Shown here: positions 26,621 to 52,722 of the stretch, one piece after another
Position numbering within the stretch: the first letter of the stretch is position 1
Layout of the letters: the number at the start of each line of letters is the position of its first letter
Sequence record: CP132210.1
DNA: 64,000 nt
DNA from: a plasmid
Direction: 5' to 3' (one strand)
The notes under the pieces: generated by a model
What the model saw: only the letters and a program-made list of their open reading frames with translations
Told to the model about the DNA's origin: nothing
The model's database searches: none
Program-made: the position numbers and the translations under genes

Positions 26621-26688
26621 AACCCCAAACCGGGGGCTTCTCCCGGTTTTTCGGGTGTTGCCCCTGCTTTAACTATAGGAGCAACACC
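26621..26688 (+). promoter_or_regulatory. Bipartite 5'-UTR hairpin module (GC stem-loop plus SD-sequestering hairpin)
   Basis: AACCGGGGG-cttct-CCCGGTT stem, then GTGTTGCCCCT pairing with AGGAGCAACAC immediately before ATG 26689. Confidence 0.55.
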
Positions 26689-27009
26689 ATGCACATCATC
26701 ACTTTCATTGTAGTTCTGCTTGCATCTCTGGGCGCATTGTACGTGGGCGCGAAGGCATTTGCTTATTCCTTCATCGTTCTCGCTAAAGTGTTCCAGCGTA
26801 TCGGTTTGTTCCTTTGGAACAAATTTGCAGTTCCTGCAATGCGGTCTGTGCAGGCCGTCATCAAAGAACGCGCTGCTAAGGCTAAACAAGCCAAAGCAGT
26901 CGTTGGGCCTGAGGTAACTCAAGCTCAAGAAGTCGCTAAACAAGAACCTGATTGGGATTATCTCGAAATTCCGACTTACCTGCGTAAAGGAAAGGACCTT
27001 GTTTGGTAA
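26689..27009 (+). CDS. Small membrane protein
   Basis: 106 aa, N-terminal TM, Lys/Ala-rich middle. Confidence 0.5.
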   Translation: MHIITFIVVLLASLGALYVGAKAFAYSFIVLAKVFQRIGLFLWNKFAVPAMRSVQAVIKERAAKAKQAKAVVGPEVTQAQEVAKQEPDWDYLEIPTYLRKGKDLVW

Positions 27010-27040
27010 TAACTGTCGCTGAGCAATCTTCGACACTTTC

Positions 27041-27103
27041 AAACCCATCGGGGCAATCATTCCCCGATGGGGATGTTGCCCCTTTTTAATTGGGAGCAAC
27101 ATC
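27041..27103 (+). promoter_or_regulatory. Bipartite 5'-UTR hairpin module
   Basis: CCCATCGGGG-caatcatt-CCCCGATGGG perfect stem then TTGCCCC...GGGAGCAACATC-ATG. Confidence 0.5.
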
Positions 27104-27205
27104 ATGGAGATCATGGAGCTCGCTATCATCGTTTTGTGCATCCCTACAGGTTGGGCAATCTCTCGTCCTTTCGTGAGAATTGCTGAATCGTTCGGCTGCT
27201 GCTGA
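27104..27205 (+). CDS. Possible 33-aa hydrophobic peptide
   Basis: ATG directly after a UTR hairpin module; MEIMELAIIVLCIPTGWAISRPFVRIAESFGCC; below ORF-track size cutoff. Confidence 0.3.
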   Translation: MEIMELAIIVLCIPTGWAISRPFVRIAESFGCC

Positions 27206-27319
27206 TAGTCAACGCAAAGGGAGGGGGTCCCCTCTCTTTCTGGTCAAGCCTCTGTGGCTTGTCCTCCAAGCCTTCTGGTGTCAGTTGGCTTTGACGACAA
27301 GCTACAGGGGGAATGTCGA

Positions 27320-27505
27320 ATGCAACAGAATATTCATGTTTACGACGATCACGCTGGCATCATCTATCTATCTGATGGACGCGAGGTGAAATTTGATCCG
27401 AAACTGTACTCCAGCTCCTACCAGGCGCACAGCGAAGCAGTGAAGTGGGCCAAAGAAACCGGGGTCATTGGTCAAGACGACGATGTGGCGATGTTCGTCC
27501 ATTGA
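27320..27505 (+). CDS. Hypothetical 61-aa protein
   Basis: Internal ATG of ORF 27254..27505 with AGGGGG RBS 9 nt upstream. Confidence 0.4.
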   Translation: MQQNIHVYDDHAGIIYLSDGREVKFDPKLYSSSYQAHSEAVKWAKETGVIGQDDDVAMFVH

Positions 27506-27548
27506 GGGAGTAGCCTCCAGAGAGGGGCTACTCTCCTCGTTTCCTAAA

Positions 27549-27704
27549 AGTCTACTTACTCATGGTGAAGCCATCAGTAAGCAGATTTTGTCCTCTCTGA
27601 GGGCGAAAACGTGCGATAGCTGGTCGCCAAAAACAAACAGCAAATTAACGTTAATTTTACTAGCCCAACCGGGCGCATCCGCCCGGTTCGGGACGTGGTG
27701 CGCC
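27549..27704 (+). promoter_or_regulatory. Conserved operon-head regulatory repeat, copy B (long form)
   Basis: About 155-bp block nearly identical to 31905-32026 and 49897-50010; contains TTGTCCTCTCTGAGGGCGAAAACGTGCGATAGCTGGTCGCCAAAAACAAACAGCA. Confidence 0.55.
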
Positions 27705-27725
27705 TGTCAAAATAGGAGCGCACCT

Positions 27726-28694
27726 ATGTCTCAATACTCTCAATTTTCAGTAAGCAAGGTTTTCGGTATGCCAAGCATTCCGGAGAAGGTAACTGCCATC
27801 GGCTACGCTGACGGTTCAAACCCCTTCATCCCTGCCACTGATACAAACTACGTTTTCCGCAAAGAGTTTCTGCGAGAGGTCTTGGCCTATCTCAAAGAGC
27901 CTGGCGGTGACGCATTGTTCGTAACCGGACCTACCGGGTCCGGTAAAACCTCAGGTATCACCGAGATCGCTGGTCGTCTTAACTGGCCTGTTCAGCAAAT
28001 CACTGCCCACGGGCGGATGGAACTGACAGATCTGATTGGACATCATGCTCTGGTCGCGGAAAAACCGGGTCAACCGCCTGTCATGAAGTTCATGTATGGA
28101 CCTCTGGCAGTCGCTATGCGTGAAGGCCATCTTCTCCTCATCAACGAGGTTGATTTGGCTGACCCTGCCGAGCTGGCTGGTCTCAACGATGTTCTTGAAG
28201 GACGTCCTCTTGTGATCGCTCAGAATGGTGGGGAAATCATCAAGCCACACCCGATGTTTCGTGTGGTCGTTACTGGTAACTCTACGGGGTCCGGTGATGC
28301 TTCTGGTTTGTACCAGGGGGTGATGATGCAGAACCTCGCTGCTATGGATCGCTATCGTTTTACCAAAGTAGGGTATGCGGATGAGGAAGCTGAACTCAGC
28401 ATTCTTGGCCGTGTTACTCCGAAACTTCCGGAAAATGTGCGGAAGGGGATGGTTCGGATTGCTAATCAGGTCCGCAAACTGTTTCTTGGTGAAAACGGAG
28501 AAGATGGTCAGCTCAGCATCACCATGTCCACCCGGACGTTGGTACGTTGGGCAAAACTGTCTCTTGCGTTCCGTGGTGCCCCCAACGCCCTTGAATACGC
28601 TCTGGATCAAGCTCTGCTTATCCGGGCGGCCAAAGAGGAGCGTGAAGCCATCCTGCGTGTTGCGAAGGATGTGTTTGGGGATCAGTGGCGCTAA
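27726..28694 (+). CDS. MoxR/CobS-like AAA+ ATPase
   Basis: Start ATG 27726 in ORF 27468..28694; Walker A GPTGSGKT, Walker B LLLINEVD; about 322 aa; paired with downstream vWA protein. Confidence 0.75.
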   Translation: MSQYSQFSVSKVFGMPSIPEKVTAIGYADGSNPFIPATDTNYVFRKEFLREVLAYLKEPGGDALFVTGPTGSGKTSGITEIAGRLNWPVQQITAHGRMELTDLIGHHALVAEKPGQPPVMKFMYGPLAVAMREGHLLLINEVDLADPAELAGLNDVLEGRPLVIAQNGGEIIKPHPMFRVVVTGNSTGSGDASGLYQGVMMQNLAAMDRYRFTKVGYADEEAELSILGRVTPKLPENVRKGMVRIANQVRKLFLGENGEDGQLSITMSTRTLVRWAKLSLAFRGAPNALEYALDQALLIRAAKEEREAILRVAKDVFGDQWR

Positions 28695-29611: not shown

Positions 29612-29780
29612 CCCTTGCGGGGCTTACTCCCCAACATGGGCTTGGCCCTCTCCAAGTAATTTGGAAGTCAATTTGGTTGGCGGGTAACTCCGCCAACTCT
29701 TACTAAACCCCACGGGGGCACCAATGCCCCGATGGGGAATGGTGTCCTCTAAACGTTCATTCGTGAATTGGAGAAACACC

Positions 29781-30776
29781 ATGTCAACTGATAGCAAATC
29801 CCTTATAACCCGCATTGCCTCTCGGTACGGTGTTGATAGCACCAAGTTTTTTGAAACCTTGAAAGCAACTGCGTTTAAGCAACGTGATGGCTCCGCTCCA
29901 ACCAACGACCAAATGATGGTTCTTCTGGTTGTGGCAGAGCAATACAACCTTAATCCGTTTACTCGGGAGATCTATGCGTTTCCTGATAGACAAAACGGGA
30001 TCATCCCGGTAGTGGGTGTTGACGGTTGGAGCCGCATCATCAACGAGCATCCCCAGCATGATGGTGTCGAGTTCGTGTATGCGGACAAGATGGTCAGAAT
30101 GGAGGGAGCAAACGTTGATTGCCCTGAGTGGATAGAATGCGTGATTTACCGTAAGGACAGATCACGCCCTATCCGGATCAAGGAGTTCATTGACGAAGTT
30201 TACCGAGGGCCAGCGCATAAAAATGGGCAAAACGGCCCTTATGTTGTCAATGGCCCTTGGCAAACACACACCAAGCGTCAACTCCGGCACAAGTCACTGA
30301 TCCAGTGTTCTCGTGTCGCGTTCGGTTTCAGTGGTATTTACGACCAAGATGAAGCAGAACGTATCCGTGAAATGGAGCAGGCATCAGCCATTAACCCGGC
30401 CATTGCAAGCCTCCCTTCACCGGCACAAGTTCATAGCCAGGAGCCTTTGGCTATTGAGCACAAAGAGCTTGACCCGATCCTAATCAAACTCGCAAATCGC
30501 GCTATTGCTGAAAACGCATGGTCTGCGGCGCATGAGTATTTGAAGGGACGGTATGAGGGTTCGGAACTGCAATATGCGACTCAATTCCTTCGTGAGAAGG
30601 AGATGGATCAAATGGAGCCTCCGAAACCTGACTACCAGGAAGCGCACGAGCAAGCCTCCACTGCTGGTGGTTCTGCGAATGCCGAACCTGTTGCCGCCGA
30701 AGTCGTGCCACCTTTGAGTGACGAGGACATGCTCCTTGTTGCAGAAGAGGAGGGTGCGCAAGGCTGTTATTACTAA
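29781..30776 (+). CDS. recT: RecT-family single-strand annealing protein
   Basis: Start 29781 after UTR module; RecT-like core incl. NGPWQTHTKRQLRHKSLIQCSRVAFGF; followed by YqaJ-type exonuclease. Confidence 0.7.
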   Translation: MSTDSKSLITRIASRYGVDSTKFFETLKATAFKQRDGSAPTNDQMMVLLVVAEQYNLNPFTREIYAFPDRQNGIIPVVGVDGWSRIINEHPQHDGVEFVYADKMVRMEGANVDCPEWIECVIYRKDRSRPIRIKEFIDEVYRGPAHKNGQNGPYVVNGPWQTHTKRQLRHKSLIQCSRVAFGFSGIYDQDEAERIREMEQASAINPAIASLPSPAQVHSQEPLAIEHKELDPILIKLANRAIAENAWSAAHEYLKGRYEGSELQYATQFLREKEMDQMEPPKPDYQEAHEQASTAGGSANAEPVAAEVVPPLSDEDMLLVAEEEGAQGCYY

Positions 30777-30838
30777 CCCCAACGGGGGGGACTCCCCCGC
30801 AGGGGGAGGTCTCCCTCCTAACCACTGGAGAGAGGTCC

Positions 30839-31849
30839 ATGAAAATAGTCAACCTATCGCAACGCGAGGAAGATTGGCTTGCTTGGCGGCGTCAAGGTGT
30901 AACAGCCACTGACGCCGCTATCCTGCTCAATCGGTCTCCGTACAAAACCCGATGGAGGTTGTGGGCCGAGAAGACTGGGTATGCGCGTGAAGTCGATCTG
31001 AGTCTCAATCCGCTGGTTCGCCGGGGGATAGAAAACGAAGATGCTGCAAGACGCGCTTTCGAGGAGAAGTATGATGACATGCTGCTCCCCGTCTGTGTCG
31101 AATCGGTTCAATACCCGCTCATGAGGGCCTCCCTGGACGGCCTGAGAGACAACGGGGAACCCGTCGAGCTGAAAAGCCCGAGTGCGACTGTTTGGGAAGA
31201 TGTTTGTGCAGAGAAAGCAAACAGCAAGGCATATCAGCTTTATTACCCGCAGGTGCAACACCAGCTCCTGGTAACGGGTGCCAAGCAAGGCTGGCTAGTC
31301 TTCTACTTTGAAGGTCAGATTCAGGAGTATCCAATACTCCGAGACGAAGCCATGATTCAAGAAATCTTGGCCGAAGCTAAAAAGTTCTGGCAACAGGTAG
31401 TAGACAGGAAGGAGCCCGACAAAGATCCGGAAAGAGACCTCTACATACCGCAAGGTGAAGAGGTCAATCGCTGGATTGCTGCTGCTGAGGAATACCGCCT
31501 CTATGATGCAGAGATTCAGGAGCTGAAACAGCGACTGGCTGAGCTTCAAGAAAGGCAAAAACCTCATCTCGACACAATGAAGTTCCTCATGGGGGAATAC
31601 TTCCATGCCGACTATTGCGGTGTGATGGTGACGAGATACAAAGCGGCTGGCCGGGTAGACTACAAAAGGCTGTTGGCAGATAAGGCGTCGGGCGTGAAGC
31701 CTGAGGATGTTGACCAATACAGAGAGAAGTCATCAGAGCGGTGCCGCGTAACGGTTACTGGTTCGGTGAAGCCACGGTACATTGTTGATGAGGACGTATT
31801 GGCTCCTCTTGATGATTTGCCGGAAGAAGTAGAGACATTCTACTGGTGA
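30839..31849 (+). CDS. YqaJ-like viral recombinase exonuclease (PD-(D/E)xK)
   Basis: N-terminal QREEDWLAWRRQGVTATDAAILLNRSPYKTRWRLWAEKTG matches YqaJ domain pattern; LDGL and ELKSP catalytic-region motifs. Confidence 0.65.
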   Translation: MKIVNLSQREEDWLAWRRQGVTATDAAILLNRSPYKTRWRLWAEKTGYAREVDLSLNPLVRRGIENEDAARRAFEEKYDDMLLPVCVESVQYPLMRASLDGLRDNGEPVELKSPSATVWEDVCAEKANSKAYQLYYPQVQHQLLVTGAKQGWLVFYFEGQIQEYPILRDEAMIQEILAEAKKFWQQVVDRKEPDKDPERDLYIPQGEEVNRWIAAAEEYRLYDAEIQELKQRLAELQERQKPHLDTMKFLMGEYFHADYCGVMVTRYKAAGRVDYKRLLADKASGVKPEDVDQYREKSSERCRVTVTGSVKPRYIVDEDVLAPLDDLPEEVETFYW

Positions 31850-31904
31850 GTGGGGGGGTCCCCCGCTTTCCCTTGGTGATTCTGAGAGTCGCCAACGGAA
31901 AGCA

Positions 31905-32026
31905 AGATTTTGTCCTCTCTGAGGGCGAAAACGTGCGATAGCTGGTCGCCAAAAATAAACAGCAAATTAACGTTAATTTTACTAGCCCAACCGGGCGCAT
32001 CCGCCCGGTTCGGGACGTGGTGCGCC
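31905..32026 (+). promoter_or_regulatory. Conserved operon-head regulatory repeat, copy C (long form)
   Basis: Near-identical to copy B; preceded by GGGGG-GT-CCCCC hairpin and GCTTTCC...GGAAAGC inverted repeat. Confidence 0.55.
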
Positions 32027-32046
32027 CCCAACTATTGGAGTGCATC

Positions 32047-33324
32047 ATGACTAAAGTGAACCATCTACAAAGCCTCTGTGTTATCCACGTTGACTTTGAT
32101 ATTTGGAGTGGACAAACCCGTTTGTCTGCATCTGATCTCAAGCTGGGCGAGGGTGGTGAAATTCCACCGGAGAAAGTAGCTCAACTGGGGAGTAAGAAGA
32201 TCTGTGATCCGGCGAAGCTGAAAGGCTTTCACCGCCTGAAAACAGAAACCCGTCGTCTCCTGTTGAAATTCGGTATGCCGTTCATGAACGGATTTGCCGT
32301 CCCAGTCAGCAAGACCGATGAAATCTGTAACAAGCTGAATGAGATCAGCTTTCAGTTCAACCAACTGAAACAGGACTTCATCAACGGTTACAACAACGCC
32401 GTGGATGAATGGTGTCAGGAAAACCCTGAGTACGAACGAGCTATCCGTGCCGGATCTCTTCCAAAGGAAACGGTCGAGGAGCGGATTGGCTTTGAGTTCC
32501 AGGTGTTCATGATCCAGCCGGTGAACGATGATGAGGCCAACGCCAAAAGCCTTAACCGTAAGGTTGAGCGCTTGGGTGACGATCTCATCTCCGAAGTGGT
32601 TCAGGAAGCGAATAAGTTCTATATGGAACGTTTGGCCGGTCGAGACCAATGTGCTGTCACGACTCGGCTGACTCTCCGTAATATCCGCGACAAGGTGGAT
32701 GGACTTAGCTTCTTGAACAGCGCTTTTAACCCTCTGGTAAAGCTGCTCGACCAAACCCTCCGGGGATATGAGAAACATGCCGATGGTCGAAACATCGTTG
32801 CGCCTTTCTTCTATCAGGTCGTGGCCGCTGTGCTGATCATGAGCGAGAGAGACCGCATCGAGCAGTATGCCAATGGCTCAATTACTGTAGAGAGCATGGC
32901 TAATAACATTGGCGGTTCGGAAGCCCAAATGGGGGACTGTTCCAAAGATGAAAAGCCTGAACGGAAAAGCGATACATCCGGTGAGCCCACTCTTGCATTT
33001 GAGGGGGGCGAAACCAAGACGCAACAGGTAGGCGGAAACGACTCTGTTCTATCCGAACAGACTAACAGCAATGGTAACGTTGTTGACCTGGATGAAGACA
33101 TCGACAACTTCTTCAAGAGTTTTGCAGAGCGAGGCGAGGGTGAATCGGAAGATGAATCCAAGGCCGGTGATGCGATTCAAGAAGAGCGAGTTGAAGTTGA
33201 GGATGAGCCTGTTTTGCCTGGGGATACTCCGGTAGAGCAAGAACCTATCCAAGAGCTACCCACTGAGGAACCCCTCATCCAGGTGCCGCCTAAAACTGAT
33301 GATGATGACGACTGTTTCTTCTAA
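32047..33324 (+). CDS. Hypothetical protein with acidic C-terminal tail
   Basis: Start ATG 32047 within ORF 32017..33324; 425 aa; C-terminus D/E-rich ending DDDDDCFF. Confidence 0.5.
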   Translation: MTKVNHLQSLCVIHVDFDIWSGQTRLSASDLKLGEGGEIPPEKVAQLGSKKICDPAKLKGFHRLKTETRRLLLKFGMPFMNGFAVPVSKTDEICNKLNEISFQFNQLKQDFINGYNNAVDEWCQENPEYERAIRAGSLPKETVEERIGFEFQVFMIQPVNDDEANAKSLNRKVERLGDDLISEVVQEANKFYMERLAGRDQCAVTTRLTLRNIRDKVDGLSFLNSAFNPLVKLLDQTLRGYEKHADGRNIVAPFFYQVVAAVLIMSERDRIEQYANGSITVESMANNIGGSEAQMGDCSKDEKPERKSDTSGEPTLAFEGGETKTQQVGGNDSVLSEQTNSNGNVVDLDEDIDNFFKSFAERGEGESEDESKAGDAIQEERVEVEDEPVLPGDTPVEQEPIQELPTEEPLIQVPPKTDDDDDCFF

Positions 33325-33408
33325 TAGTCACTTCAACTAAATCGACCCGGAGGGGATAGCCATTCCCTCCAGGGGTGGACTATCTCCTTCCCTACCAGGA
33401 GAAAAGAT

Positions 33409-35224: not shown

Positions 35225-35257
35225 TCGCCCATTTTGGGTGGCCGCCATTTTTTAACC
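35225..35257 (+). terminator. Rho-independent terminator
   Basis: GCGGTCGCCCA-TTTT-GGGTGGCCGC imperfect stem then ATTTTTT. Confidence 0.55.
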
Positions 35258-35319
35258 TAGCAGGGGCGTCCTATCTCCTGTTAGGAGGGGGAGCCTCTTT
35301 TGAATAGAGAGCAACTCAA

Positions 35320-40678: not shown

Positions 40679-40732
40679 CCCCCTGCTTTCCCAGCGACAT
40701 CGACTTTCACATGTGAAAGTTTTGTGCCCCTC

Positions 40733-43297: not shown

Positions 43298-43357
43298 TAA
43301 CACTCCGGGGCAATGCCGAAAGGCCTTTGCCCCGGCCTATCCGAAAGGGGAGTGATC

Positions 43358-43789: not shown

Positions 43790-43861
43790 ACCAATAAGCC
43801 GTTAACGGGCAATGTAAGCCCGGAGACGGCTTACATTGCTCTCTCGTAAGTGGAGAGTTAA

Positions 43862-44416
43862 ATGAACACATTAGAACAACTTGTAAATCAGAGGGTGCTT
43901 GAGGAAGGCCTGAAAAAGGCGAAGCCATTGGCCGCGCAAATGGGGCTTGAATCAGTGCCTGATGAGATGCTTGAGATGATCTGCCCGAACTTGAACTACT
44001 CTGGGCAATTTACGCCAGCTCTTTACGCAAGGTTCCAAAGCGTAAAGCAATTGCTGAAAGAGCTGTCGGAACAAACCTCACCTAAGCACGGGCATATTGT
44101 AAAGTTTACCAACCAATATGGGAGCTACGATGAGTCAGCTTTGCTGTTCAAAGAGGGCGATGTCAGAAACCAGAACTTGGTTGCTTGTGTGGGCGGGAAA
44201 ACGCTAAACCTCGGAGAGCTAGAGCTTCAAGATTACGGGCTCAATATGCACATCGGTTGCGGTGGGCCATTTGAGCCGGTCTCAGAAGCGCAGATTCAGT
44301 CTTTGTCTGAGTTTGACCTCTATGAGACGACTTACAGGTTCTGGGGCCAGAGTCCATGTGGAAACGGAATGTTAGACATCACCGTACCTATGAAGCGCTG
44401 GTTCTTGACTGTGTAG
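43862..44416 (+). CDS. Hypothetical protein
   Basis: 184 aa; upstream AATGTAAGCC-cggagac-GGCTTACATT hairpin and SD hairpin. Confidence 0.45.
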   Translation: MNTLEQLVNQRVLEEGLKKAKPLAAQMGLESVPDEMLEMICPNLNYSGQFTPALYARFQSVKQLLKELSEQTSPKHGHIVKFTNQYGSYDESALLFKEGDVRNQNLVACVGGKTLNLGELELQDYGLNMHIGCGGPFEPVSEAQIQSLSEFDLYETTYRFWGQSPCGNGMLDITVPMKRWFLTV

Positions 44417-44547
44417 ATTCAATCTGAGTGCGCCGAGAAATCGGCGTACCGTTCCCTTGAGAAGGGTAATCGGCGCAGGGGGAAACCCCGCGCTTTCCCA
44501 AGTTTCTCGGATTCCCAGGATGCTTCGGAAAGTGCCTTAGGCGCTCA

Positions 44548-44590
44548 AGTGCGGTAGCTGGCTGCCAAAAACAAACAGCAAATTATCAAC
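44548..44590 (+). promoter_or_regulatory. Conserved operon-head regulatory repeat, copy F
   Basis: GTGCGGTAGCTGGCTGCCAAAAACAAACAGCAAATTATCAAC. Confidence 0.45.
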
Positions 44591-44648
44591 CCTGACGGGA
44601 GCACCTCCTGTTAGGGGGTCTCCGTCATAAACTGAATGGAGATATAGC

Positions 44649-45035
44649 ATGTCTAAAAACGTCAATGATGTTTTTTCAAACCGATCTTCCTTGGAGTGTA
44701 CTGTGAATGCAGCGCTGGACCGTCGTATTGGTCTGCGTGTCGGGTTCCCTCATTACCGAGAAGGAGCAAACGGTGTGGTTTGTGAGATCGAAGCAGAGTA
44801 CCCATTGCTGAACACTCATTCGGGTGTTGTATGGACTCAGCTCGATGAACTCAACAGTTACACCATCAAAAAAAACCAATCACTCATTGATCACATTGAT
44901 AATGCGATCGCTGAACTGTTGAAACACAAGGCTCGTCTACAGCTTGATATTCAAAAGCTGCGAGACGGTGACATTGATCTGGTGAAACAGGCCAAGCAGC
45001 AATACGAAGACAACCAGATGTCGAGTACCCGCTAG
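44649..45035 (+). CDS. Hypothetical protein
   Basis: 128 aa. Confidence 0.45.
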   Translation: MSKNVNDVFSNRSSLECTVNAALDRRIGLRVGFPHYREGANGVVCEIEAEYPLLNTHSGVVWTQLDELNSYTIKKNQSLIDHIDNAIAELLKHKARLQLDIQKLRDGDIDLVKQAKQQYEDNQMSSTR

Positions 45036-45120
45036 TAAGGTCTGATAGCCAGATTCAATTTTAACCCTACCGGGGTGCTTTCCCGGAAGGGATGGGCACC
45101 CTGCTTATCCAGGAGGCCCT

Positions 45121-47574
45121 ATGCAACAAGCATTAAACTTTGACCTACCAGAACAACCAACCCCAGTGCTCTTGCGAGGGGATAAGTGGGACTCTGTTTG
45201 GTCAGAACTGACTGATAACGAGGATTTGAACTTCGTTGATGCCAGTAGAGGAACCAGCTTGTCATCGTTGATCACGTCATCGGTTGAAGCCATTCACACG
45301 GCCTTGAACGATGGGTGGACCATGATGGTCGGCTATTCCAGTGGTAAGGATTCTGAAACGGTTTTGCATCTGTTTCTGATGGCTCTTGTCCGGGCGGTTA
45401 GGAGTGGAGCAACCATCAGCCAACACCACTTCATCTTGCACACTGACACACTGATAGAAAGCCCAGAAGTAAGATGGCTGGCGGATCAGAAACTGGCCGA
45501 GTTGGAGCGTTTCATTGTGAAGGAAAACCTTCCTCTGACCATCGTTCTGGCAAAGCCGGGGATCACGCAGAGTTGGACGGGCCGAATCCTTACGGGGAGG
45601 GGGTTGCCTACATTTTCCAACTCTTCGGCCCGTCAGTGTAGCCAAGAACTCAAAATCACCTCAGCCAAAAGAGCGAAGGCGGCTTATATGCGAGAACTCC
45701 CCAAGGATGTTCGGCAGAAAGTGTGCCTCCTGTTGGGGAGCCGTGATGCTGAAAGCGCTATTCGTGCAGCCAACATTGCAAAGCAGCGAGGAAGCTCAAA
45801 TCGCGTCATTAAGACGAAAGATGGGGGGGAGCTGTATGTGGTGAAAAACTGGTTGGCGAGTGATGTCTGGGAGTTCTTGCTATCTGCTGGCATGGGCTCA
45901 CCATACCCCCTGCCAAGTTACCTAGAGAGCAATGTCACTACGGCAGAGCTCTACAAGGCAGCGACGGGGGAGTGCGTGTGGTCGGCAACAGAGAAAAAGG
46001 CCAGTGATGCGTGTGGTGCTCGCTTCGGTTGCTGGGCCTGCCAAGCTGTAGGGTTGGATAAGTCGATGGAGACATTGCTTGCCACAGACCCTGAAAGGCA
46101 TGGCTACATGTCTGGGCTGAACCGCATCCAGCGCTACCTGGCAAAACGCCGGTACGCTTGGGAAGATCGCCATCCCGTAGGTCGAACGATTTATGAGGGG
46201 GGTTACATCAAAATACAGCCGGACGTTTACAGTCCTGTTTTCCTTGAGCGATTGCTTCATGTCTGTTGCAGCATGGACTACATGGAGCAAAAAAGAGCTG
46301 ATGAGCTTGCTTACAAGCTGGCTACTGGGCAAGCCGAGGATAACGACTGGAACCGTCGAATGGCAGAGCCGCAATTCCGGATCATATCGGAAGAAGCTTT
46401 AGTCCATATCGACTTCATGTGGGCCTTCCATCATTTCAATGATAAGCCTTTCCATGCCCTGGAGATTTACCACAGGGTTTGGTCGATGGGTGATCTGGAT
46501 TTGCTGGAAGATGAGCCGCAGTGCGAAACCGTTCCTCAGTCACCAATTCCGAAACCATTGTGGTTGAGAGTTGGGCGCTGGGGCGATGGTTCGCTGTCTG
46601 ATGGCTTGGCCGACCCGTTAGCGGAAATGGCTTACTTTGACGGCGGGGATGACCCGTTGGCAGTGAAAGTTATCAATACCGCAGATGGAAAGAGAAGGGT
46701 GGTTTGTTTCGCAGAGGATGATGAGGTGAAGGTCGATCCCGACTCCGCTGCATTCATCATCTGGAATGAATACCCGCGACTTAGGGAGTCGGTACTAAAG
46801 GGAAATTATACGCCCGGTAGTGCTGCTCAGTTCTACCTTCGGTTCGGAGCCATCCAGCTTGCGAAAGGAAAAGGCGCTTTGTATCACCGCATGATGCAAA
46901 GAGGTCAAACCTACCACCAGATGGGCCTTACAGGGCTACAGACGATGGAAGGAATCCAACAGCGCAAGGACCTCAAAGTGCTTTGTGATGACAAGTACAA
47001 AGATCTGGTGAAGCGAAAAATCAAGGGAAGACTGGCTACGGTACGCTGGTGGATCAACTTGCACTTAACGTTCAAGTACCACCTGCACCACCGGACTCCG
47101 ACGGGGTTATTCGTCGAGAGGCAACTTGACCAGGAAGCAATGGAAGAGCAGAAACGGCACCAGGAGCGATGGTTTAACTACGTGACTGACGCGATGCTCT
47201 GTTACTCCAGCGCATTCTGTATGAGCGTCATGGAGGGGCGAGAGGGAAGCGGAAACGCCAACATCCGTCGTTACATGGCTGCGACCAGAAGAAAGGCTTA
47301 TACGGCCCTCTGTGAGCTCCTACGCCACACTAACGCCCTCTGGGCGACAGATGTGGCCTTGAGTGCTGTAGGGAAGTATGAGGAGATACAGGCAGCCCTA
47401 ACCGAAGGTTCCGCGCTGGCTACCTACCTCGACTGGATCAACCTACTATCAAAACGTCATCCAGCCTCTTTGAAGCGACATGTCAGAACGATGATCAAAG
47501 TGGTTCAACGACTACATCGCCGCGACGACACAATGTTGCAAAGAGGACAGCAAGGCTTGTCCTTGGCCGCATAA
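45121..47574 (+). CDS. PAPS-reductase-like PP-loop family protein (DndC-like), large
   Basis: 817 aa; PP-loop GYSSGKDSETVLH near N-terminus; long C-terminal extension. Confidence 0.55.
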   Translation: MQQALNFDLPEQPTPVLLRGDKWDSVWSELTDNEDLNFVDASRGTSLSSLITSSVEAIHTALNDGWTMMVGYSSGKDSETVLHLFLMALVRAVRSGATISQHHFILHTDTLIESPEVRWLADQKLAELERFIVKENLPLTIVLAKPGITQSWTGRILTGRGLPTFSNSSARQCSQELKITSAKRAKAAYMRELPKDVRQKVCLLLGSRDAESAIRAANIAKQRGSSNRVIKTKDGGELYVVKNWLASDVWEFLLSAGMGSPYPLPSYLESNVTTAELYKAATGECVWSATEKKASDACGARFGCWACQAVGLDKSMETLLATDPERHGYMSGLNRIQRYLAKRRYAWEDRHPVGRTIYEGGYIKIQPDVYSPVFLERLLHVCCSMDYMEQKRADELAYKLATGQAEDNDWNRRMAEPQFRIISEEALVHIDFMWAFHHFNDKPFHALEIYHRVWSMGDLDLLEDEPQCETVPQSPIPKPLWLRVGRWGDGSLSDGLADPLAEMAYFDGGDDPLAVKVINTADGKRRVVCFAEDDEVKVDPDSAAFIIWNEYPRLRESVLKGNYTPGSAAQFYLRFGAIQLAKGKGALYHRMMQRGQTYHQMGLTGLQTMEGIQQRKDLKVLCDDKYKDLVKRKIKGRLATVRWWINLHLTFKYHLHHRTPTGLFVERQLDQEAMEEQKRHQERWFNYVTDAMLCYSSAFCMSVMEGREGSGNANIRRYMAATRRKAYTALCELLRHTNALWATDVALSAVGKYEEIQAALTEGSALATYLDWINLLSKRHPASLKRHVRTMIKVVQRLHRRDDTMLQRGQQGLSLAA

Positions 47575-47575: not shown

Positions 47576-47605
47576 AGGCCCTCCTTCGGGAGGGCTTTTT
47601 CTTTT
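47576..47605 (+). terminator. Rho-independent terminator
   Basis: AAGGCCCTCC-TTCG-GGAGGGCTT stem then TTTTCTTTT. Confidence 0.8.
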
Positions 47606-47687
47606 GCACCCCAAAAGGGCAATTACAGCGTTTTACCCTTTTAAGGTGGCTGTCATACTCTTTGCTCATTGTCAGCGCTTGCTGGCT

Positions 47688-47725
47688 ATAACGGTAGCTG
47701 GCCCAAAACAGCAATAACCTAACCC
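47688..47725 (+). promoter_or_regulatory. Conserved operon-head regulatory repeat, copy G (diverged)
   Basis: GGCTATAACGGTAGCTGGCCCAAAACAGCAATAACC; whole 47608-47730 region parallels 26468-26620. Confidence 0.45.
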
Positions 47726-47775
47726 CTCGGGAGGCAACCCTCCTGGGTTCTCTCCCATAACCAAAGGAGAGAAGC

Positions 47776-47979
47776 ATGAGCCTAGACAAGTTAAGTCGGC
47801 TGGTGGACCAACAGCGAAAGACCCAGGATGAAATCAACAACGAAGTCATTCTGGCCGTCAAAGAGGTGTTGTCTACAAATTCCATCAGCTTGGCCCGTGA
47901 GCTTGTTGGGTGTGTCCCGCAAGATCATCCATTCCATCCGTTTTTGCTCGCCATAGCTAAGCAGCTTGACCCGAGATAA
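47776..47979 (+). CDS. Hypothetical 67-aa protein
   Basis: AAAGGAGAGAAG RBS. Confidence 0.4.
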   Translation: MSLDKLSRLVDQQRKTQDEINNEVILAVKEVLSTNSISLARELVGCVPQDHPFHPFLLAIAKQLDPR

Positions 47980-48050
47980 CGAAGTAACCCAACCGGGTAC
48001 ACCAAGGCCCGGTCGGGTTTGGTGTACCTCCAGCCAATTTAGGAGGCACT

Positions 48051-48656
48051 ATGTCTGATTCAAATTTCGGCTTTCTAGCTCTGGCCTTGCGCCAACGCCT
48101 GATCAAGCGCTGGTCGCTGATGCACTCTGTTCAACCAGAGTCTGTGTTGGAGCACAGCGCTGTTGTTACCTTGCTTTCCTACCTGGCTGGCAATATCGCC
48201 ATTCAGCAAGGGAAGTCGGTGGATCTGGCAATCATGCTGGCTCATGCGTCGTTGCATGATGCAGCCGAGGTTCTTTGTTCGGATGTTGTCACGCCGGTCA
48301 AGAAAGCAAATGCTGTTTTGCAGCGTGAGTTTGAACGACTGGAAAAGGCCGCAGAGGACAAACTTATCCAGACTCTTCCCGAAGAACTCCAGGATGCAGT
48401 TTCCAGAGCCTTTGCTCCCGGTGGCTATGAACAATCACTGGTTAAGGCCTGTGATACCTACTCCGCTTACATCAAGTGCAAACTTGAGGTGGCCGCAGGT
48501 AATGGCATTGAGTTCCAAGATGCTCTCAGCAAAATGGAACGTATTGTTGCTCAGGTGAAATTGGACTTCCCGGAAATCGACGCTCTGGACAAATGGTTTG
48601 GTGACGGACTGGGCCATTCAGTAGATAAATTGCTGGCCGGGGGTAACGATGACTAA
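48051..48656 (+). CDS. yfbR: YfbR-like HD-domain 5'-deoxynucleotidase
   Basis: LIKRWSLMHSVQPESVLEHSAVV, HDAAEVLCSDVVTPVK and KACDTYSAYIKCKLEVAAGN match YfbR conserved blocks incl. HD motif. Confidence 0.75.
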   Translation: MSDSNFGFLALALRQRLIKRWSLMHSVQPESVLEHSAVVTLLSYLAGNIAIQQGKSVDLAIMLAHASLHDAAEVLCSDVVTPVKKANAVLQREFERLEKAAEDKLIQTLPEELQDAVSRAFAPGGYEQSLVKACDTYSAYIKCKLEVAAGNGIEFQDALSKMERIVAQVKLDFPEIDALDKWFGDGLGHSVDKLLAGGNDD

Positions 48657-48921: not shown

Positions 48922-49000
48922 GCCGCAAGGCTTCTTAACCCCACGGGGGACATCTGTCCCTGAGGGGGGGGTGTCTCCCTCTGAAACTAAGGAGATACCA

Positions 49001-49861
49001 ATGATTAAGCAGCATTTTCAAAACGAACTGGTCAAATGCGGATACCCTGATGACCTGACCATTGAGTACCGTCTTGGGTACTGTCAGGGTGATGGAGTGG
49101 CATTCTACGGATGTTTGGGTGTTGATAATGCTCAGGCGTTGATGAAGCGCTTGTTAAGCACCACAAAGGGGCAAGTAGATGCTGTCAGCAGAGTGAAAAA
49201 CCTGATAGCACAAAAAGACATTGACAATATGTTTCTTGTCCTTCGTGAGTATGCTGAGCTCCAGTTCTGCGAACTGGACATCAACAGAAACAGCTACGGC
49301 CATCATTACAGTCACTGGAACACCATGCGTATTGATAGCAACGTAGACTTCACTGGGATCTTTCCTGATGATGACACCATGCTTGGAACAGGCATCGAAG
49401 GGATTGACCAAGCGATGTTAGAGCGTTGGCAAGGCATCTGGGAGCGTTTCGTGTTGGAACTGTCGGGTGATGTTAAACAGCTTTCCAAGAAGCTCGAATC
49501 CGACGGTTATGCGTTGATAGAAGCCTCGCCACACGAAGAGAAAGTGGTTTGGGAACGGACTACTCAAAATTACTTGGTGCGAGTGACAGAACTCCCTGAA
49601 CGGGATTTCGACATGGACCACTGGGATGACGACATCAGAGACCAAACGATTCGTTCTATCCTGGAGGGAAAAGAGCGAGTGCTTGGCCTACGTGTTGAGG
49701 TGCTCTCTCGTGAAAACGAGATTGTTCTGGGTGAAGAGAGTCTGCACGGTTTGACCGTTGCCAGTGATGACAAGAGCTACGCTGGCTACAGACGAGAACT
49801 CCTCCGGGGCGCTATCCAGCAAACCAGAGATTTTTTCTCTCGCCACCTCAAAGCGGCATAA
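49001..49861 (+). CDS. Hypothetical protein
   Basis: Start ATG 49001 in ORF 48971..49861; 286 aa. Confidence 0.5.
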   Translation: MIKQHFQNELVKCGYPDDLTIEYRLGYCQGDGVAFYGCLGVDNAQALMKRLLSTTKGQVDAVSRVKNLIAQKDIDNMFLVLREYAELQFCELDINRNSYGHHYSHWNTMRIDSNVDFTGIFPDDDTMLGTGIEGIDQAMLERWQGIWERFVLELSGDVKQLSKKLESDGYALIEASPHEEKVVWERTTQNYLVRVTELPERDFDMDHWDDDIRDQTIRSILEGKERVLGLRVEVLSRENEIVLGEESLHGLTVASDDKSYAGYRRELLRGAIQQTRDFFSRHLKAA

Positions 49862-49896
49862 CAAAGCAGGGGGAAACCCCTGCTTTACTCCCCAAG

Positions 49897-50010
49897 TCTC
49901 CTTACTCATGGTGAAGCCATCAGTAAGCAGATTTTGTCCTCTCTGAGGGCGAAAACGTGCGATAGCTGGTCGCCAAAAACAAACAGCAAATTAACGTTAA
50001 AAATCTCGGC
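49897..50010 (+). promoter_or_regulatory. Conserved operon-head regulatory repeat, copy H (long form)
   Basis: CATGGTGAAGCCATCAGTAAGCAGATTTTGTCCTCTCTGAGGGCGAAAACGTGCGATAGCTGGTCGCCAAAAACAAACAGCAAATTAACGTTAA, identical to 27563-27655. Confidence 0.55.
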
Positions 50011-50093
50011 TTTGGCCGTGATCTTTCAATAACCCATGCGGGTACACCTCCCCGCACGGGCTAGGTGTACCCATTAACTTTGGAGTACACCTC

Positions 50094-50480
50094 ATGAACC
50101 AAGTAGCTAAATTGGACCTCGCCCAAATCCGTCAACAAGCCATCAATGATGGACTGCTGGTGGACCAATCCTCCATCGGCACACAAGCTGGTTTCCTGAC
50201 CAATGTGGCAGTGACCCCAGCCATTGTCGATGGAGTATTTGGTGCGGATGGTAAGCACTCGGCAGAAGACTTCCTTCTCATGTTTTTGCAGCTTTGTGTT
50301 GCCCAAACAAAGGTCGCTTTTACCGACAACAAGAACTGGGGAAAGATTCGCCTCTATTACCCCATGCCCACTGTAAATGGCTTTTTCAAACCCACTGAGG
50401 TTGTGATTAAGTCAGACCCTGTAACCGCAGATGTCACAATCATGATGGCCTCAGAAGAGGGCACCCATTTGTGTTTGTGA
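50094..50480 (+). CDS. Hypothetical protein
   Basis: 128 aa; AGGTGTACCC / GAGTACACCT SD hairpin upstream. Confidence 0.45.
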   Translation: MNQVAKLDLAQIRQQAINDGLLVDQSSIGTQAGFLTNVAVTPAIVDGVFGADGKHSAEDFLLMFLQLCVAQTKVAFTDNKNWGKIRLYYPMPTVNGFFKPTEVVIKSDPVTADVTIMMASEEGTHLCL

Positions 50481-50657
50481 TGTTCACAAAATTCGCCTCC
50501 GTCTCGGGGGCGATCTTTTTAAACCCCTCGCCGGGGAGTTCTCCCCGGCTGGGGAGCCTCCTTGGCACATCCTCCCGGTGTCGGGGTTTCCTTAAAACCC
50601 TGGCGACGGGGGTTTAAGGAAGCCTCGATGCTGGGGTTCACGCTAAGGAGAAAACCT

Positions 50658-52385
50658 ATGTCTTACTACAAAGCTGACACCGTTCGTGAAGCTGCAAACG
50701 GAAACTGGCTATTCATCCTGGCGGCTCTAGCGCCCCATCTTGAACCAGCTCTCCGTAAACCAGGTCGTCATGTTTCTTGCCCTATCCACGGTGGGAAAGA
50801 TGGCTTCCGCCTGTTCAAGGATGCCCACCTGACTGGTGGCGGCGTATGCAATACATGCGGTGCTAATCATGACGGTTTTGAGTTGCTGATGTGGCTCAAT
50901 AATTGGGACTTTAAGCAGTGTCTGAGCGAGGTTGGTGATTATCTGGGAGTTGAGAAAGAGCAACCCCAGTGTCAACAAGCCGCTGCACCGACACGAGCTC
51001 CTGCACAGGCCAAAGCGCCTGTTCAGCAAGGGCCCATGAAGGTGAATAACAAGGTCCTCGATTCCAAGAATCGCAAAAAATCCATTGCCGGTACTCTGAT
51101 TGCCCACGGTAAAGCTCCCTATGAGCATAACGAAGACAATGAGCTCAGCTACTTTGCCTTCATCCGTGACAGGAGCGGTTTGGAACGCACCATTTGGGGC
51201 GTGGATCTTGAAAGAGCCATCGGTGAAAGCGAAGCCAAGTATGGTGATGAGGTCGTCATGACAAACCTCGGGCGCGAGCCTGTAACTGTCGTCGTTGAAG
51301 TTAAGGACGATCAGGGGAATGTTGTGAGAGAACAACCTATGCAAACGCATCGCAACACCTGGCTGGTGGAACGTCGTGGCGCTTCGGTGACGCAGTTCCG
51401 CGCACGCTCAAACGGTGGTGTTGAGTCGGTGAGTCACCATGTTGAGTTGCCCCCTGTGGTCAACCGCACGGTAGAAGCTCCGGCACCGCAAGCACAAGCT
51501 TCGGCCATACAACTGGAAGGGCAAAGCAGCGAAAACAAGCCGAAAGTTGTTCCAATGTTTCGTGAACAACCCAAGCCTTGGTTGCTTGAGCTCCAAGAGG
51601 AAATGGAGAAGAGAATGGAGCGTGAACGCGCTTACAGCGCTCGCCTCCGTGAGAAAATTGAGAAGGTATGGAACGAGTGTTTGCCGTTCTCTAGTCGTGT
51701 GACTGAACCAATGCGTCTGTATTTCAAAAACCGCGAGCTGCTGTTCAACGTTGATGAAGTAGAAAAAACAGACTGTTTGCGGTTCAATCCGGCTATGCCC
51801 TACTACGACGAAGATGGCAATGAAGTTGGGAAATTCCCGGCTATCGTCTGCGCTATCCGAGATGTGGAAGGCAACCTGGTAACGCTCCACCGCACCTATC
51901 TCACCCAAAACGGTAAAAAAGCCAAGGTTGGCAACGCCAAGAAAATGATGCCCATTCCTGACGGCTTGGATGTTAATGGCGCGGCCATCCGCCTCGGTGA
52001 ACCGAGTGAGGGTATCCTGGGTGTTGCAGAAGGGCTGGAAACGGCTCTGTCCGCTTATCGAGTCACTCAAATTCCGGTTTGGTCAACGGTCAATGCGACC
52101 CTGATGGAGTCCTTCGAGGTTCCAGAAGGTGTTCACACAGTATTGATCTGGGCTGACAAAGATAAGTCTGTGACTGGTGAAAAGTCAGCTAACGTGCTGA
52201 AAGCCAAGCTGGAGAAGCGCGGCATTCGTGTTTACGTCCTGCTGCCTAAACTCCCAATCCCACCCAGAGCGAAAGGGATTGACTGGAACGATGTCCTGAT
52301 GAGTCAGGGAAGCCTCGGTTTCCCAAATGCTCGCTACCTGCGCGATTTTATTGCGAGAAGGAGAGCTGAGTATGCCCGTCATTGA
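50658..52385 (+). CDS. DNA primase (zinc-binding domain plus Toprim)
   Basis: Start ATG 50658 in ORF 50562..52385; N-terminal CPIHGGKDGFRLF...CNTCG zinc finger; C-terminal Toprim-like EGLETA ... WADKDKSVTGE. Confidence 0.7.
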   Translation: MSYYKADTVREAANGNWLFILAALAPHLEPALRKPGRHVSCPIHGGKDGFRLFKDAHLTGGGVCNTCGANHDGFELLMWLNNWDFKQCLSEVGDYLGVEKEQPQCQQAAAPTRAPAQAKAPVQQGPMKVNNKVLDSKNRKKSIAGTLIAHGKAPYEHNEDNELSYFAFIRDRSGLERTIWGVDLERAIGESEAKYGDEVVMTNLGREPVTVVVEVKDDQGNVVREQPMQTHRNTWLVERRGASVTQFRARSNGGVESVSHHVELPPVVNRTVEAPAPQAQASAIQLEGQSSENKPKVVPMFREQPKPWLLELQEEMEKRMERERAYSARLREKIEKVWNECLPFSSRVTEPMRLYFKNRELLFNVDEVEKTDCLRFNPAMPYYDEDGNEVGKFPAIVCAIRDVEGNLVTLHRTYLTQNGKKAKVGNAKKMMPIPDGLDVNGAAIRLGEPSEGILGVAEGLETALSAYRVTQIPVWSTVNATLMESFEVPEGVHTVLIWADKDKSVTGEKSANVLKAKLEKRGIRVYVLLPKLPIPPRAKGIDWNDVLMSQGSLGFPNARYLRDFIARRRAEYARH

Positions 52386-52650
52386 TGTCACGAAGGTTGA
52401 TACGACGCCTGGTAACGACGCAGTATGCCCCTTCTCTCCCCCTGAGGGGTGGGGGGGGGACTCTGCGGCCTATGTTGAGCTTATGCGGTCTCGGTATCGC
52501 CATCTGATGCACGGCCAGAGAATGATGGTGACAGCCTCCTTCGCAAGAAGGGAGCCTATCCAAGTTACCGGTCCGTTCGCTGATGAGGCGATGAAGATCA
52601 TTAGCTCAATGAAGATGAACAAGGCGAAGCCTACAGCTTTGTCTGTCTAA
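52372..52650 (+). CDS. Hypothetical protein
   Basis: Internal ATG 52372 of ORF 52327..52650 with GAAGGAGAG RBS; overlaps primase end. Confidence 0.4.
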   Translation: MPVIDVTKVDTTPGNDAVCPFSPPEGWGGDSAAYVELMRSRYRHLMHGQRMMVTASFARREPIQVTGPFADEAMKIISSMKMNKAKPTALSV

Positions 52651-52722
52651 AACCTTAACCCGGAGGGGGTGTTCATGCCCTCTCGGGCATGATTCGCCTC
52701 CTCTTCAACTATGGAGGTAATC

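Follow-up and report, generated by a model that had tools for sequence, protein, structure and literature searches.

Why is nearly every gene of a 26-kb unidirectional array preceded by the same small, structured element, and what might that element do? The question arises from a stretch of 64,000 nucleotides of plasmid record CP132210.1 (hereafter the window, meaning the whole stretch analysed), where an earlier note had described a two-part element in front of nearly every gene: a GC-rich hairpin followed by an anti-Shine-Dalgarno (anti-SD) stretch pairing with the Shine-Dalgarno (SD) sequence of the gene itself. We find both hairpins in the intergenic spacers and in minimum free energy (MFE) folds, together with an alternative pairing that connects them. 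On the modelled folds, we consider it on balance probable that each copy, here called a module, gates translation initiation in cis as an RNA with two states, in accessory operons that AcaCD activates on an IncA/C plasmid. Both IncA/C plasmids and SXT/R391 elements rank among the main vehicles of multidrug resistance.

The modules were collected by inspecting every intergenic spacer, folding positions -75 to +3 relative to each start, and curating the result (Table 1). This yielded 26 canonical modules, two variants and one orphan hairpin, all on the + strand between 26.6 and 52.7 kb, with the consensus TTAACCC..GGGG..CCCC..GGG..GGAG..ATG. The first hairpin, H1, has the form CCC..GGGG / CCCC..GGG, and the second, H2, pairs the anti-SD arm with an arm containing the SD and AUG; across the 26 canonical copies their free energies range from -9.6 to -22.7 kcal/mol and from -2.9 to -18.3 kcal/mol, respectively. 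Twenty-four of the starts listed in the earlier note carry canonical modules, while that at 43358 has a nested variant and that at 50658 an expanded, degenerate copy, and canonical modules at 44649 and 47776 had been overlooked; its example coordinates were right within a few bases, save that 48930 should read 48939. Array genes lacking a module (28706, 39277, 39734, 48649 and 52372) overlap or adjoin the preceding gene, a pattern to which two further module-less genes, at 27254 and 35874, are exceptions.

The arrangement far exceeds chance. A purpose-written detector, in whose matches at least three of the four SD bases are paired, recovered 22 of the 26 modules, compared with 0.38 +/- 0.53 (maximum 2) when the upstream 66 nt were dinucleotide-shuffled and the sequence from SD to ATG was kept. 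Applied to the entire window, it returned 23 strong matches on the + strand, all at 26.6-52.8 kb with none elsewhere on that strand, plus a single match on the - strand; the plasmid's remaining 83 kb contained no strong backbone matches. A covariance model covering H1 only (R1), run with filters off, found nothing better than E=6 in the tra region (1-26 kb), and Rfam 15 gave no matches at gathering score over the whole window and none up to E=5 at the modules or at a companion repeat, D1, described below. G.U pairs in H1 numbered 25 on the mRNA-sense strand versus 7 on the complement in the window, and 64 versus 33 in other loci.

While H1 and H2 are both real, the bipartite description missed a third pairing. 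The upper 5' strand and loop of H1 (GGGG-X, where X varies from copy to copy) approximately copy the SD arm (GGAG-X) and are complementary to the anti-SD arm (X'-CCYC); this pairing we term H3. To describe the pairings we number the H1 5' arm with its loop, the H1 3' arm, the anti-SD arm and the SD arm as segments 1 to 4. Alignment-free duplex energies were compared for segments taken within a copy and between copies, using 24 non-paralogous copies and permutation. All three pairings proved copy-specific at p<5e-5: H1 (1:2; own -19.1 versus other -13.0), H2 (3:4; -13.4 versus -8.0) and H3 (1:3; -16.0 versus -10.4). The control pairings were not copy-specific in these 24 copies (2:3, p=0.57; 1:4, p=0.12; 2:4, p=0.44), and the 1:3 signal persisted when H1 nucleotides were taken out of segment 3 and when the loop alone was used. 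The proposal that paired arms change together between copies is thus borne out for H1 and H2. Counted column by column in a MAFFT alignment of the paralogues, 64% of positions were paired, versus 62% after shuffling and up to 69% after sliding; the copies are out of register, and these flat counts are attributable to register shifts and runs of G and C.

In MFE folds H2 sequesters the SD and often the AUG, as had been proposed, a behaviour with a precedent in the bet attenuator that PMC4542580 describes in SXT. When the SD arm is held single-stranded, 22 of the 26 copies refold into one long H3 hairpin (segment 1 with segment 3), and the displaced 3' arm of H1 folds on itself at the tip as a CCC-N4-GGG mini-hairpin. 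This apical mini-hairpin of the open fold would explain the self-complementary arms of H1 (CCC-N4-GGG). An H-type pseudoknot, with the H1 stem kept and its loop paired to segment 3, was judged unlikely by reasoning on geometry (0-4 nt loops against 10-bp stems), and closed and open folds should therefore be mutually exclusive. Since the SD-arm mimic in H1 can capture the anti-SD arm, H1 would have a role in place of, or besides, the protection of the upstream 3' end suggested for it earlier.

Predicted energetics indicate what H3 might contribute. Mean energies are -32.9 for the closed fold, -24.6 for the open fold with H3 and -19.1 for H1 only, such that H3 lowers the cost of freeing the SD arm from ~13.9 to 8.3 kcal/mol. 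The mean ensemble cost of opening positions -13 to +3 is 9.7 kcal/mol without masking, falls to 5.0-5.5 kcal/mol when the first 3-7 nt of H1 are masked and climbs back to 7.4-11.0 kcal/mol when the first 10-14 nt are masked, because the 5' CCC of H1 is unpaired in H3. The same V-shaped response is found in seven other elements. Gene by gene, the predicted opening cost in the array runs from 3.8 to 15.4 kcal/mol. Among genes in the window, the cost of opening the ribosome-binding site (RBS) averages 10.0 kcal/mol for module genes, 7.4 for tra genes and 5.3 for post-array genes (p=0.003). Computation shows both folds, with pairings that are specific to each copy and conserved, and shows that H3 reduces the predicted cost of RBS exposure, which masking of the clamp at the H1 base alone reduces further.

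The conservation that the earlier note proposed to look for in related elements is present in both plasmids and SXT/R391-type integrative and conjugative elements (ICEs). Relatives were fetched from plasmid and genome collections by way of the VWA protein. The H1 model gave 319 matches (E<=1), spread over 70 loci and nearly all in gene-strand orientation, with ~50 SXT/R391-type loci holding matches at conserved positions. The full-module detector found 5-31 copies on the gene strand versus 0-2 on the opposite strand in pAsa4c, in SXT/R391-type ICEs and in plasmid-like elements of Vibrio, Alcanivorax, Marinobacterium, Pseudomonas, Azomonas, Mycoavidus, Pseudoalteromonas and Paraglaciecola; in two AT-rich Thorsellia loci it found no modules. 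One detector cluster in pAsa4c (L003, 10376-11260) was excluded as false positives, being a 94-bp GC-rich tandem repeat of 9.4 copies between traN and the next gene. Modules precede orthologous genes across elements despite changed sequence: IncC plasmid pVCR94 has 24 strong copies, with vcrx089, ssb, bet and exo among the genes preceded, and in an SXT/R391-type locus bet, too, is preceded by a canonical module. Moreover, the copy-specific 1:2, 3:4 and 1:3 signals recur in ten loci (L002, L003, L005, L007, L009, L010, L011, L012, L019 and L057), and the null controls recur in every element tested, save that the Pseudoalteromonas/Paraglaciecola pair of loci, which are close relatives, give a weak 2:3 signal.

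Orthologous modules also retain the alternative fold. For ten modules upstream of the VWA gene, aligned plainly with MAFFT, RNAalifold predicts H3 with the apical mini-hairpin, with compensatory changes in nine pairs. State A, the closed fold (H1+H2), is 83% paired versus 41-70% with slid partners, with double changes in seven pairs; state B, the open fold, is 92% paired versus 51-65% slid, a value reached in 0/500 shuffles, and column 22 of the alignment covaries with both of its alternative partners. Coming from ten related sequences, these pair counts are supportive and are not to be read as probabilities. Between IncA and IncC, substitutions fall at 18/856 (2.1%) of positions paired in either state and at 18/323 (5.6%) of unpaired module positions; the comparison points only to slower change at paired sites, with too few substitutions to speak to compensation.

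We hypothesize that the two folds would operate as follows. In state A, the predicted ground state, H1 would be formed (5' CCC-N-C-GGGG-X ... CCCC-G-N-GGG) and the X'-CCYC arm would be paired to GGAG-X right before the AUG, burying the SD and, in some copies, the AUG as well. In state B, the anti-SD arm would pass from the SD arm to the H1 mimic GGGG-X to make the single long hairpin H3, with the H1 3' arm as the CCC-N4-GGG tip mini-hairpin and the 5' CCC, SD and AUG single-stranded. The 3-6 bp CCC:GGG clamp at the H1 base would be the main determinant of the balance. The module may in this manner hold down translation of very highly transcribed anti-defence and establishment genes, low translation having been measured for bet in SXT, with the spacer RNA staying fully structured throughout. 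Capture of the SD by a 30S subunit could then let H3 latch the anti-SD arm away, as a built-in anti-attenuator, and occupancy of the clamp or of the A/U-rich 5' flank, by a ribosome stopped at an abutting UAA, by a standby 30S/S1 or by another factor, could favour the open state.

A more ambitious extension, possible in our view but doubtful, is that all ~25 modules of an element work together across the regulon as bistable RNA latches, each with its own code, which one event flips from 'transcribed but silent' to 'translated', with D1 in the same circuit. Each gene would have a private key, made up of X, present in both the H1 loop and the SD arm, and of X' in the anti-SD arm. The CCC:GGG clamp and the A/U-rich foot are common to all copies, and one event could therefore flip the whole programme; candidates would be a factor or ribosome state just after entry into a new host, or the pioneer round of co-transcriptional initiation. 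The D1 hairpin (loop UAGCUGG) at the heads of sub-operons would belong to the same post-transcriptional circuit.

Several points weigh against a two-state gate. All energies are nearest-neighbour predictions. In most copies they give the closed state as MFE with a margin of 2.5-15 kcal/mol, and the direct-path barriers of ~13 (B to A) and ~21 kcal/mol (A to B) are upper bounds in which loop-kissing intermediates are ignored; state B might therefore be seldom reached unaided. On thermodynamics alone attenuation is predicted to be moderate, as module genes lie only ~2.6-4.7 kcal/mol above other genes. IncA/IncC changes at paired sites are mostly single and slightly destabilising (3 keep and 8 break pairs of state A, 8 keep and 5 break pairs of state B), and the SXT bet attenuator of PMC4542580 is equated with the module by its position only. 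Finally, neither trigger considered below is well matched to the modules: a real upstream stop adjoins H1 in just 15/130 copies, where the predicted switch is no larger, and of the 30 array proteins scanned, Pfam identifies none with an RNA-binding or helicase domain that would mark a candidate factor. The lead of the closed state and the high barrier estimates would both be expected if the structure were static, with H1 stabilising or insulating the mRNA, H2 a fixed RBS mask, and H3 complementarity a by-product of shared ancestry or quasi-palindrome correction; many copies moreover have related X (GGTG..CACC), as common descent would give. We nevertheless judge such a static arrangement quite improbable, given that H3 complementarity is copy-specific, as strong as that of H1 and H2, and replicated in nine further elements, an SXT/R391-type ICE among them, down to 34% protein identity. 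Compensatory changes keep H3 in the VWA orthologues, at a paired fraction above that of H1+H2, and the self-complementary CCC-N4-GGG of both H1 arms is explained by state B only. A role at the DNA level, with the hairpins acting in single-stranded DNA (ssDNA) during transfer, either to give Bet/Exo repair its pause or annealing sites or in the manner of REP/MITE/attC-like repeats, is highly improbable. The region is indeed repeat-rich and used by Bet/Exo for repair, palindromes have been suggested to pause Exo (Roy et al., PMC7498323), and G.T pairs are tolerated in + strand ssDNA too. However, every copy has its own SD, and often its AUG, built in at a fixed distance; the copies have a single orientation, no terminal repeats, no GTTRRRY/RYYYAAC cores and no Rfam matches, and their unlike sequences make homologous annealing impossible for modules.

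Two further rival accounts differ in how the gate would be opened. In a termination-coupled relay, a ribosome stopping at a UAA that abuts the CCC clamp would melt the clamp, H3 would form and the downstream RBS would open, gene to gene. A ribosome with a stop codon in the A site keeps ~4-5 nt past the stop single-stranded, and the largest predicted fall in opening cost comes at exactly the first 3-7 nt of H1, longer masks cancelling it. In keeping with the relay, TAA stands directly before H1 in 39/130 copies (any stop codon in 48/130), and distance 0 is far over-represented among real stop-to-H1 distances, with four such copies in the window (exo, 38612, 38898 and 40066) and 6/15 in locus L005. 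Real upstream stops, however, lie within 1 nt of H1 in only those 15 copies (~12%), most lying 5-50 nt away and out of reach, copies heading sub-operons after D1 share the design without any upstream ORF (open reading frame), and the predicted switch is equal in size in every distance class (p=0.68). Stop-to-H1 distances thus rule out termination coupling as a general trigger, and we regard the relay as a distinctly unlikely account. Also unlikely, in our estimation, is a trans-acting switch in which a plasmid or host factor (a protein, or a standby 30S/S1) binds the A/U-rich, G-poor flank and AACCC at the foot of H1 and opens the ~25 gates together, for instance on entry into a new host. The flank has A at -2 in 95/130 and at -1 in 85/130 copies, C at 0 and +1 in 128-129/130 and G in <=~10% at most flank positions, and clamp masking is predicted to save 3-5 kcal/mol in 8/8 elements tested. 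The hde genes act in the recipient (PMC7498323), and bet/exo translation is described in PMC4542580 as strongly restrained in induced donors. Against such a switch, the Pfam scan of 30 array proteins brought up no candidate factor, and the G-poor flank and the CCC/GGG orientation also follow from the internal logic of the switch, in which the SD dictates in turn the anti-SD, the mimic, CCCC, GGG and CCC. An ASCH-like protein elsewhere on the plasmid is known by annotation only and has no link to the modules.

The element that carries the array is not the GI-type (ICEclc/PFGI-1) ICE supposed by the earlier note. A 20-kb stretch of the array is 100% identical to pEco15-1, a 152-kb E. coli plasmid, and ~93% identical to many IncC plasmids, and a plasmid with an identical VWA gene is typed as IncA, MOBH and MPF_F. 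The record itself is circular, 152 kb long, and encodes a RepB family replication initiator, parAB, a MobH relaxase and an F-type tra set, the array block lying directly 3' of traN in the annotated record. Judged by sequence, the window is the backbone of an IncA (A/C-family) conjugative plasmid with its AcaCD-activated block, an assignment that follows from identity to typed IncA and IncC plasmids and from the spacing of AcaCD boxes. Array genes include a vcrx087 homologue, an AAA/CbbQ ATPase (vcrx089 homologue), bet (RecT) and exo (YqaJ), as well as genes for DUF3150, VWA and DUF3085 proteins, an N6/N4 methylase, a C5 methylase, a YfaE-like ferredoxin, a PAPS-reductase-like protein, a YfbR-like nucleotidase and a toprim protein. 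The ssb gene that lies between the vcrx090 homologue and bet in IncC is missing from the IncA plasmid, leaving a 169-nt spacer (29612-29780) that holds an orphan H1 and hairpin remnants.

Transcription of the array appears to depend on three AcaCD boxes (CCCNAAANGGNCA(G/A)TTNNAGCGTT), which appear to be the sole AcaCD-dependent promoters serving the 26 kb. They are spaced 9745 and 11384 bp apart, compared with 10248 and 11383 bp in pVCR94 (Table S3, PMC4207636). By RNA-seq, vcrx087-vcrx101 are at ~0-5 without acaCD, vcrx097 excepted, and mostly in the thousands when induced (PMC4207636). Between 26300 and 46000, sigma-70-like promoter matches number 2 versus 15.1 +/- 4.0 in shuffled sequence, which suggests selection against internal constitutive promoters in the array.

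At the head of every sub-operon, 25-45 nt 5' of a module, stands the D1 repeat, in copies ~1-4.4 kb apart. Each D1 comprises a sequence-variable first hairpin, a second hairpin with a covarying 4-6 bp stem (GAGA/TCTC, GCGA/TCGC, GAGG/CCTC, ACGT/ACGT and others) and an invariant TAGCTGG loop, and the tail AAACAAACAGCA. By analogy with mapped transcription start sites, D1 would lie within the 5' untranslated region of the AcaCD-driven transcripts. The repeat is kept in plasmid lineages, occurring also in L002, L003, L005, L007, L011 and L012 (with loop TAACTGG in most copies of one AT-rich plasmid), and was not found in SXT-type loci. D1 looks like a structured RNA or a protein-binding site in ssDNA. 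As a sigma-70 promoter it was rejected, having no consensus match and lying upstream, in its internal copies, of genes that are silent without AcaCD. Terminator-like GC-rich hairpins with TTTC or T-runs occur just 5' of internal D1 copies (~27221-27240, 31853-31870, 36284-36301, 44487-44510, 47578-47600 and 49870-49890), yet the genes 3' of them are AcaCD-dependent in published RNA-seq, which implies read-through or processing there.

Parts of this system have been described before. For SXT, PMC4542580 reports a strong translational attenuator upstream of bet, hindering translation despite high transcription, and states of its presence in A/C plasmids that functionality there was yet to be investigated. 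That attenuator shares with the module the bet/exo operon context and the element superfamily; as described in that paper it is one attenuator at one gene, whereas here there are ~25 copies per element with a defined alternative fold. Roy et al. (2020) cited a predicted structure sequestering the vcrx089 RBS in IncC pVCR94 to account for a polar effect (PMC7498323), and it corresponds to our module 3. The same study reported intergenic rptI repeats used by Bet/Exo for repair (PMC7498323); rptI a-f of pVCR94 probably represent the D1/D2 repeat preceding eight modules. This identification draws on spacing, the rptIb-rptIa offset of 1042 bp (PMC7498323) being matched to the D1 loops at 26567 and 27617, and the other reported rptI deletion sizes roughly fit once the IncC ssb is counted. 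Roy et al. read rptI as single-strand-annealing substrates, not as RNA elements (PMC7498323). The architecture had therefore not gone wholly undescribed, given the published vcrx089 structure and bet attenuator. Full-text searches of the published literature, outside which the primary 2013 attenuator paper lay, returned no description of a multi-copy family or an alternative fold. What appears to be new is the family of ~25 copies per element and hundreds across the superfamily, with a two-state architecture and three-way covariation.

Compared with known regulatory classes, the modules belong most readily with RBS-sequestering attenuators: the SD and/or start codon is paired in a stable MFE fold, and the pairing is upheld by compensatory change. 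The ermC and cat leaders likewise have four segments: segment 3 masks segment 4, which holds the SD/AUG, and an alternative pairing frees it. In those leaders this pairing is 2:3, whereas modules use 1:3 with segment 2 looped out as a mini-hairpin. Modules differ further in having no leader peptide and no drug-stalled ribosome and in preceding ~25 genes rather than one resistance gene. No leader ORF was found in module spacers, which sets them outside the ermC/cat leader-peptide class, and masking all of segment 1 raises the opening cost, the opposite of leader-peptide attenuation.

In the atpH-atpA intercistronic region and in the MS2 coat-replicase pairing, a downstream RBS is masked and can be unmasked by an event in the upstream cistron. 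Each of these is a one-off structure that the upstream ribosome opens directly; in modules that ribosome reaches the clamp in ~12% of copies and the open state is stabilised by a dedicated mimic. Translational coupling as a class does not fit, because the upstream stop is near enough in 15/130 copies only and the rest are identical in design. The PeSL promoter-stem-loop cassettes of T4-type phages keep their sequence and contain a promoter, and the T7 early-gene sites are long RNase III substrates. Like modules, both are cis cassettes that recur along a unidirectional array of a mobile element, in front of numerous small accessory or early genes; unlike them, modules are conserved in structure rather than sequence and act on the RBS. 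The modules do not resemble RNA thermometers (ROSE, fourU), the anti-SD being CCYC and not U-rich, with H2 at ~-12 and H1 at ~-18 kcal/mol at 37 C. REP, BIME and MITE families are set apart by the mean column identity of 46-50%, the strict gene-strand orientation and the ATG ending each copy, and integron attC sites by a consensus without the GTTRRRY core.

These features broaden an isolated attenuator into a general, testable layer of control, in which a covarying two-state gate may stand on nearly every translational unit. The genes preceded by modules include functions for surviving restriction and CRISPR on entry into a new host, namely the vcrx089/090 anti-restriction genes, bet/exo and the methylases. 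Within the AcaCD/SetCD regulon, the operons of the array rank with the most strongly transcribed, but translation at bet is poor. More generally, the family supplies a single bistable design in >100 natural copies that diverged independently and show three-way covariation, a kind of data that is rare for ligand-free RNA switches. For annotation, modules flag true start codons and unannotated small genes.

Table 1. Positions of modules, related copies, AcaCD boxes and D1 repeats in the window.
Feature	Positions	Strand	ATG	Gene and remarks	Basis
Module 1	26623-26691	+	26689	vcrx087 homologue; H1 26623/26627-26649, H2 26654-26688	MFE, H1 covariance model, detector
Module 2	27044-27106	+	27104	Unannotated 33-aa ORF; H1 27044-27071, H2 27072-27103	MFE, H1 covariance model
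Module 3	27664-27728	+	27726	AAA ATPase, vcrx089 homologue	MFE, H1 covariance model
Orphan H1	29612-29640	+		Directly 3' of stop of vcrx090 homologue, site of ssb in IncC	H1 covariance model
Module 4	29708-29783	+	29781	bet	MFE, H1 covariance model, Pfam
Module 5	30777-30841	+	30839	exo; TAA stop adjoins H1	MFE
Module 6	31986-32049	+	32047	DUF3150	MFE
Module 7	33346-33411	+	33409	VWA protein; orthologue set behind covariation counts	
Module 8	35256-35322	+	35320	DUF3085; weaker copy	MFE
Module 9	36411-36470	+	36468	vcrx098 homologue	MFE
Module 10	37027-37090	+	37088		MFE
Module 11	37596-37664	+	37662	N6/N4 DNA methylase	MFE, Pfam
Module 12	38547-38614	+	38612	YfaE-like ferredoxin; TAG stop adjoins H1	MFE
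Module 13	38837-38900	+	38898	TAA stop adjoins H1	MFE
Module 14	40010-40068	+	40066	Weak H2; H3-type pairing already in MFE	MFE
Module 15	40270-40327	+	40325		MFE
Module 16	40811-40873	+	40871		MFE
Module 17	41229-41294	+	41292	Near-identical paralogue of modules 3 and 6	MFE
Module 18	41608-41674	+	41672	C5 cytosine methylase; MFE is the H3 fold	MFE
Variant copy, nested topology	43301-43360	+	43358	Anti-SD CACTCC 5' of GC hairpin, pairs with GGAGTG	
Module 19	43797-43864	+	43862	H1 without CCC/GGG signature; loop GCAATGTAAGC complementary to GCTTACATTGC	
Module 20	44590-44651	+	44649		MFE
Module 21	45065-45123	+	45121	817-aa PAPS-reductase-like protein	MFE, Pfam
Module 22	47723-47778	+	47776	vcrx114 homologue	MFE
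Module 23	47986-48053	+	48051	YfbR-like 5'-deoxynucleotidase	MFE, Pfam
Module 24	48939-49003	+	49001		MFE
Module 25	50033-50096	+	50094		MFE
Expanded, degenerate copy	50524-50660	+	50658	Toprim protein; H1-like 50524-50554, extra hairpins	H1 covariance model, detector
Module 26, last of array	52659-52725	+	52723		MFE
AcaCD box, vcrx087-type promoter	26480-26506	+			Repeat; spacing match
AcaCD box copy, matching vcrx098 promoter	36225-36251	+			Spacing
AcaCD box copy, matching vcrx114 promoter	47609-47635	+			Spacing
D1 copy 1	26522-26596	+		Two hairpins; TAGCTGG loop at 26567	
D1 copy 2	27572-27646	+		TAGCTGG loop at 27617	
D1 copy 3	31894-31968	+		TAGCTGG loop at 31939	
D1 copy 4	36330-36404	+		TAGCTGG loop at 36375	
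D1 copy 5	40730-40804	+		TAGCTGG loop at 40775	
D1 copy 6	44510-44584	+		TAGCTGG loop at 44555	
D1 copy 7, shortened tail	47650-47715	+		TAGCTGG loop at 47695	
D1 copy 8	49918-49992	+		TAGCTGG loop at 49963	

We also identified several smaller features. An unannotated ORF at 27104-27205 (+) encodes a hydrophobic peptide of 33 aa (MEIMELAIIVLCIPTGWAISRPFVRIAESFGCC) and has a near-perfect module in front; homologues of 30-31 aa, also with a module, occur in pAsa4c, in a Shewanella IncA/C-like element and in an Alcanivorax element, and the ORF is likely a real gene for a small membrane protein. Outside the window, at 22285-22563 of the pEco15-1 record (L073) and upstream of the relaxase region, lies the gene of a 92-aa protein that carries the annotation 'RNA-binding protein' and by eye looks ASCH/PUA-like; on the backbone regions examined it is the sole annotated RNA-binder candidate. 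Lastly, positions 58560-58690 contain a long hairpin resembling H1 (CCCTTGCGGGGGTTAA...TTAACCCCTGTAGGG), with ATAACCTCT-type palindromes on its flanks, upstream of an 83-aa ORF at 58684; it is no canonical module and looks more like an operator region.

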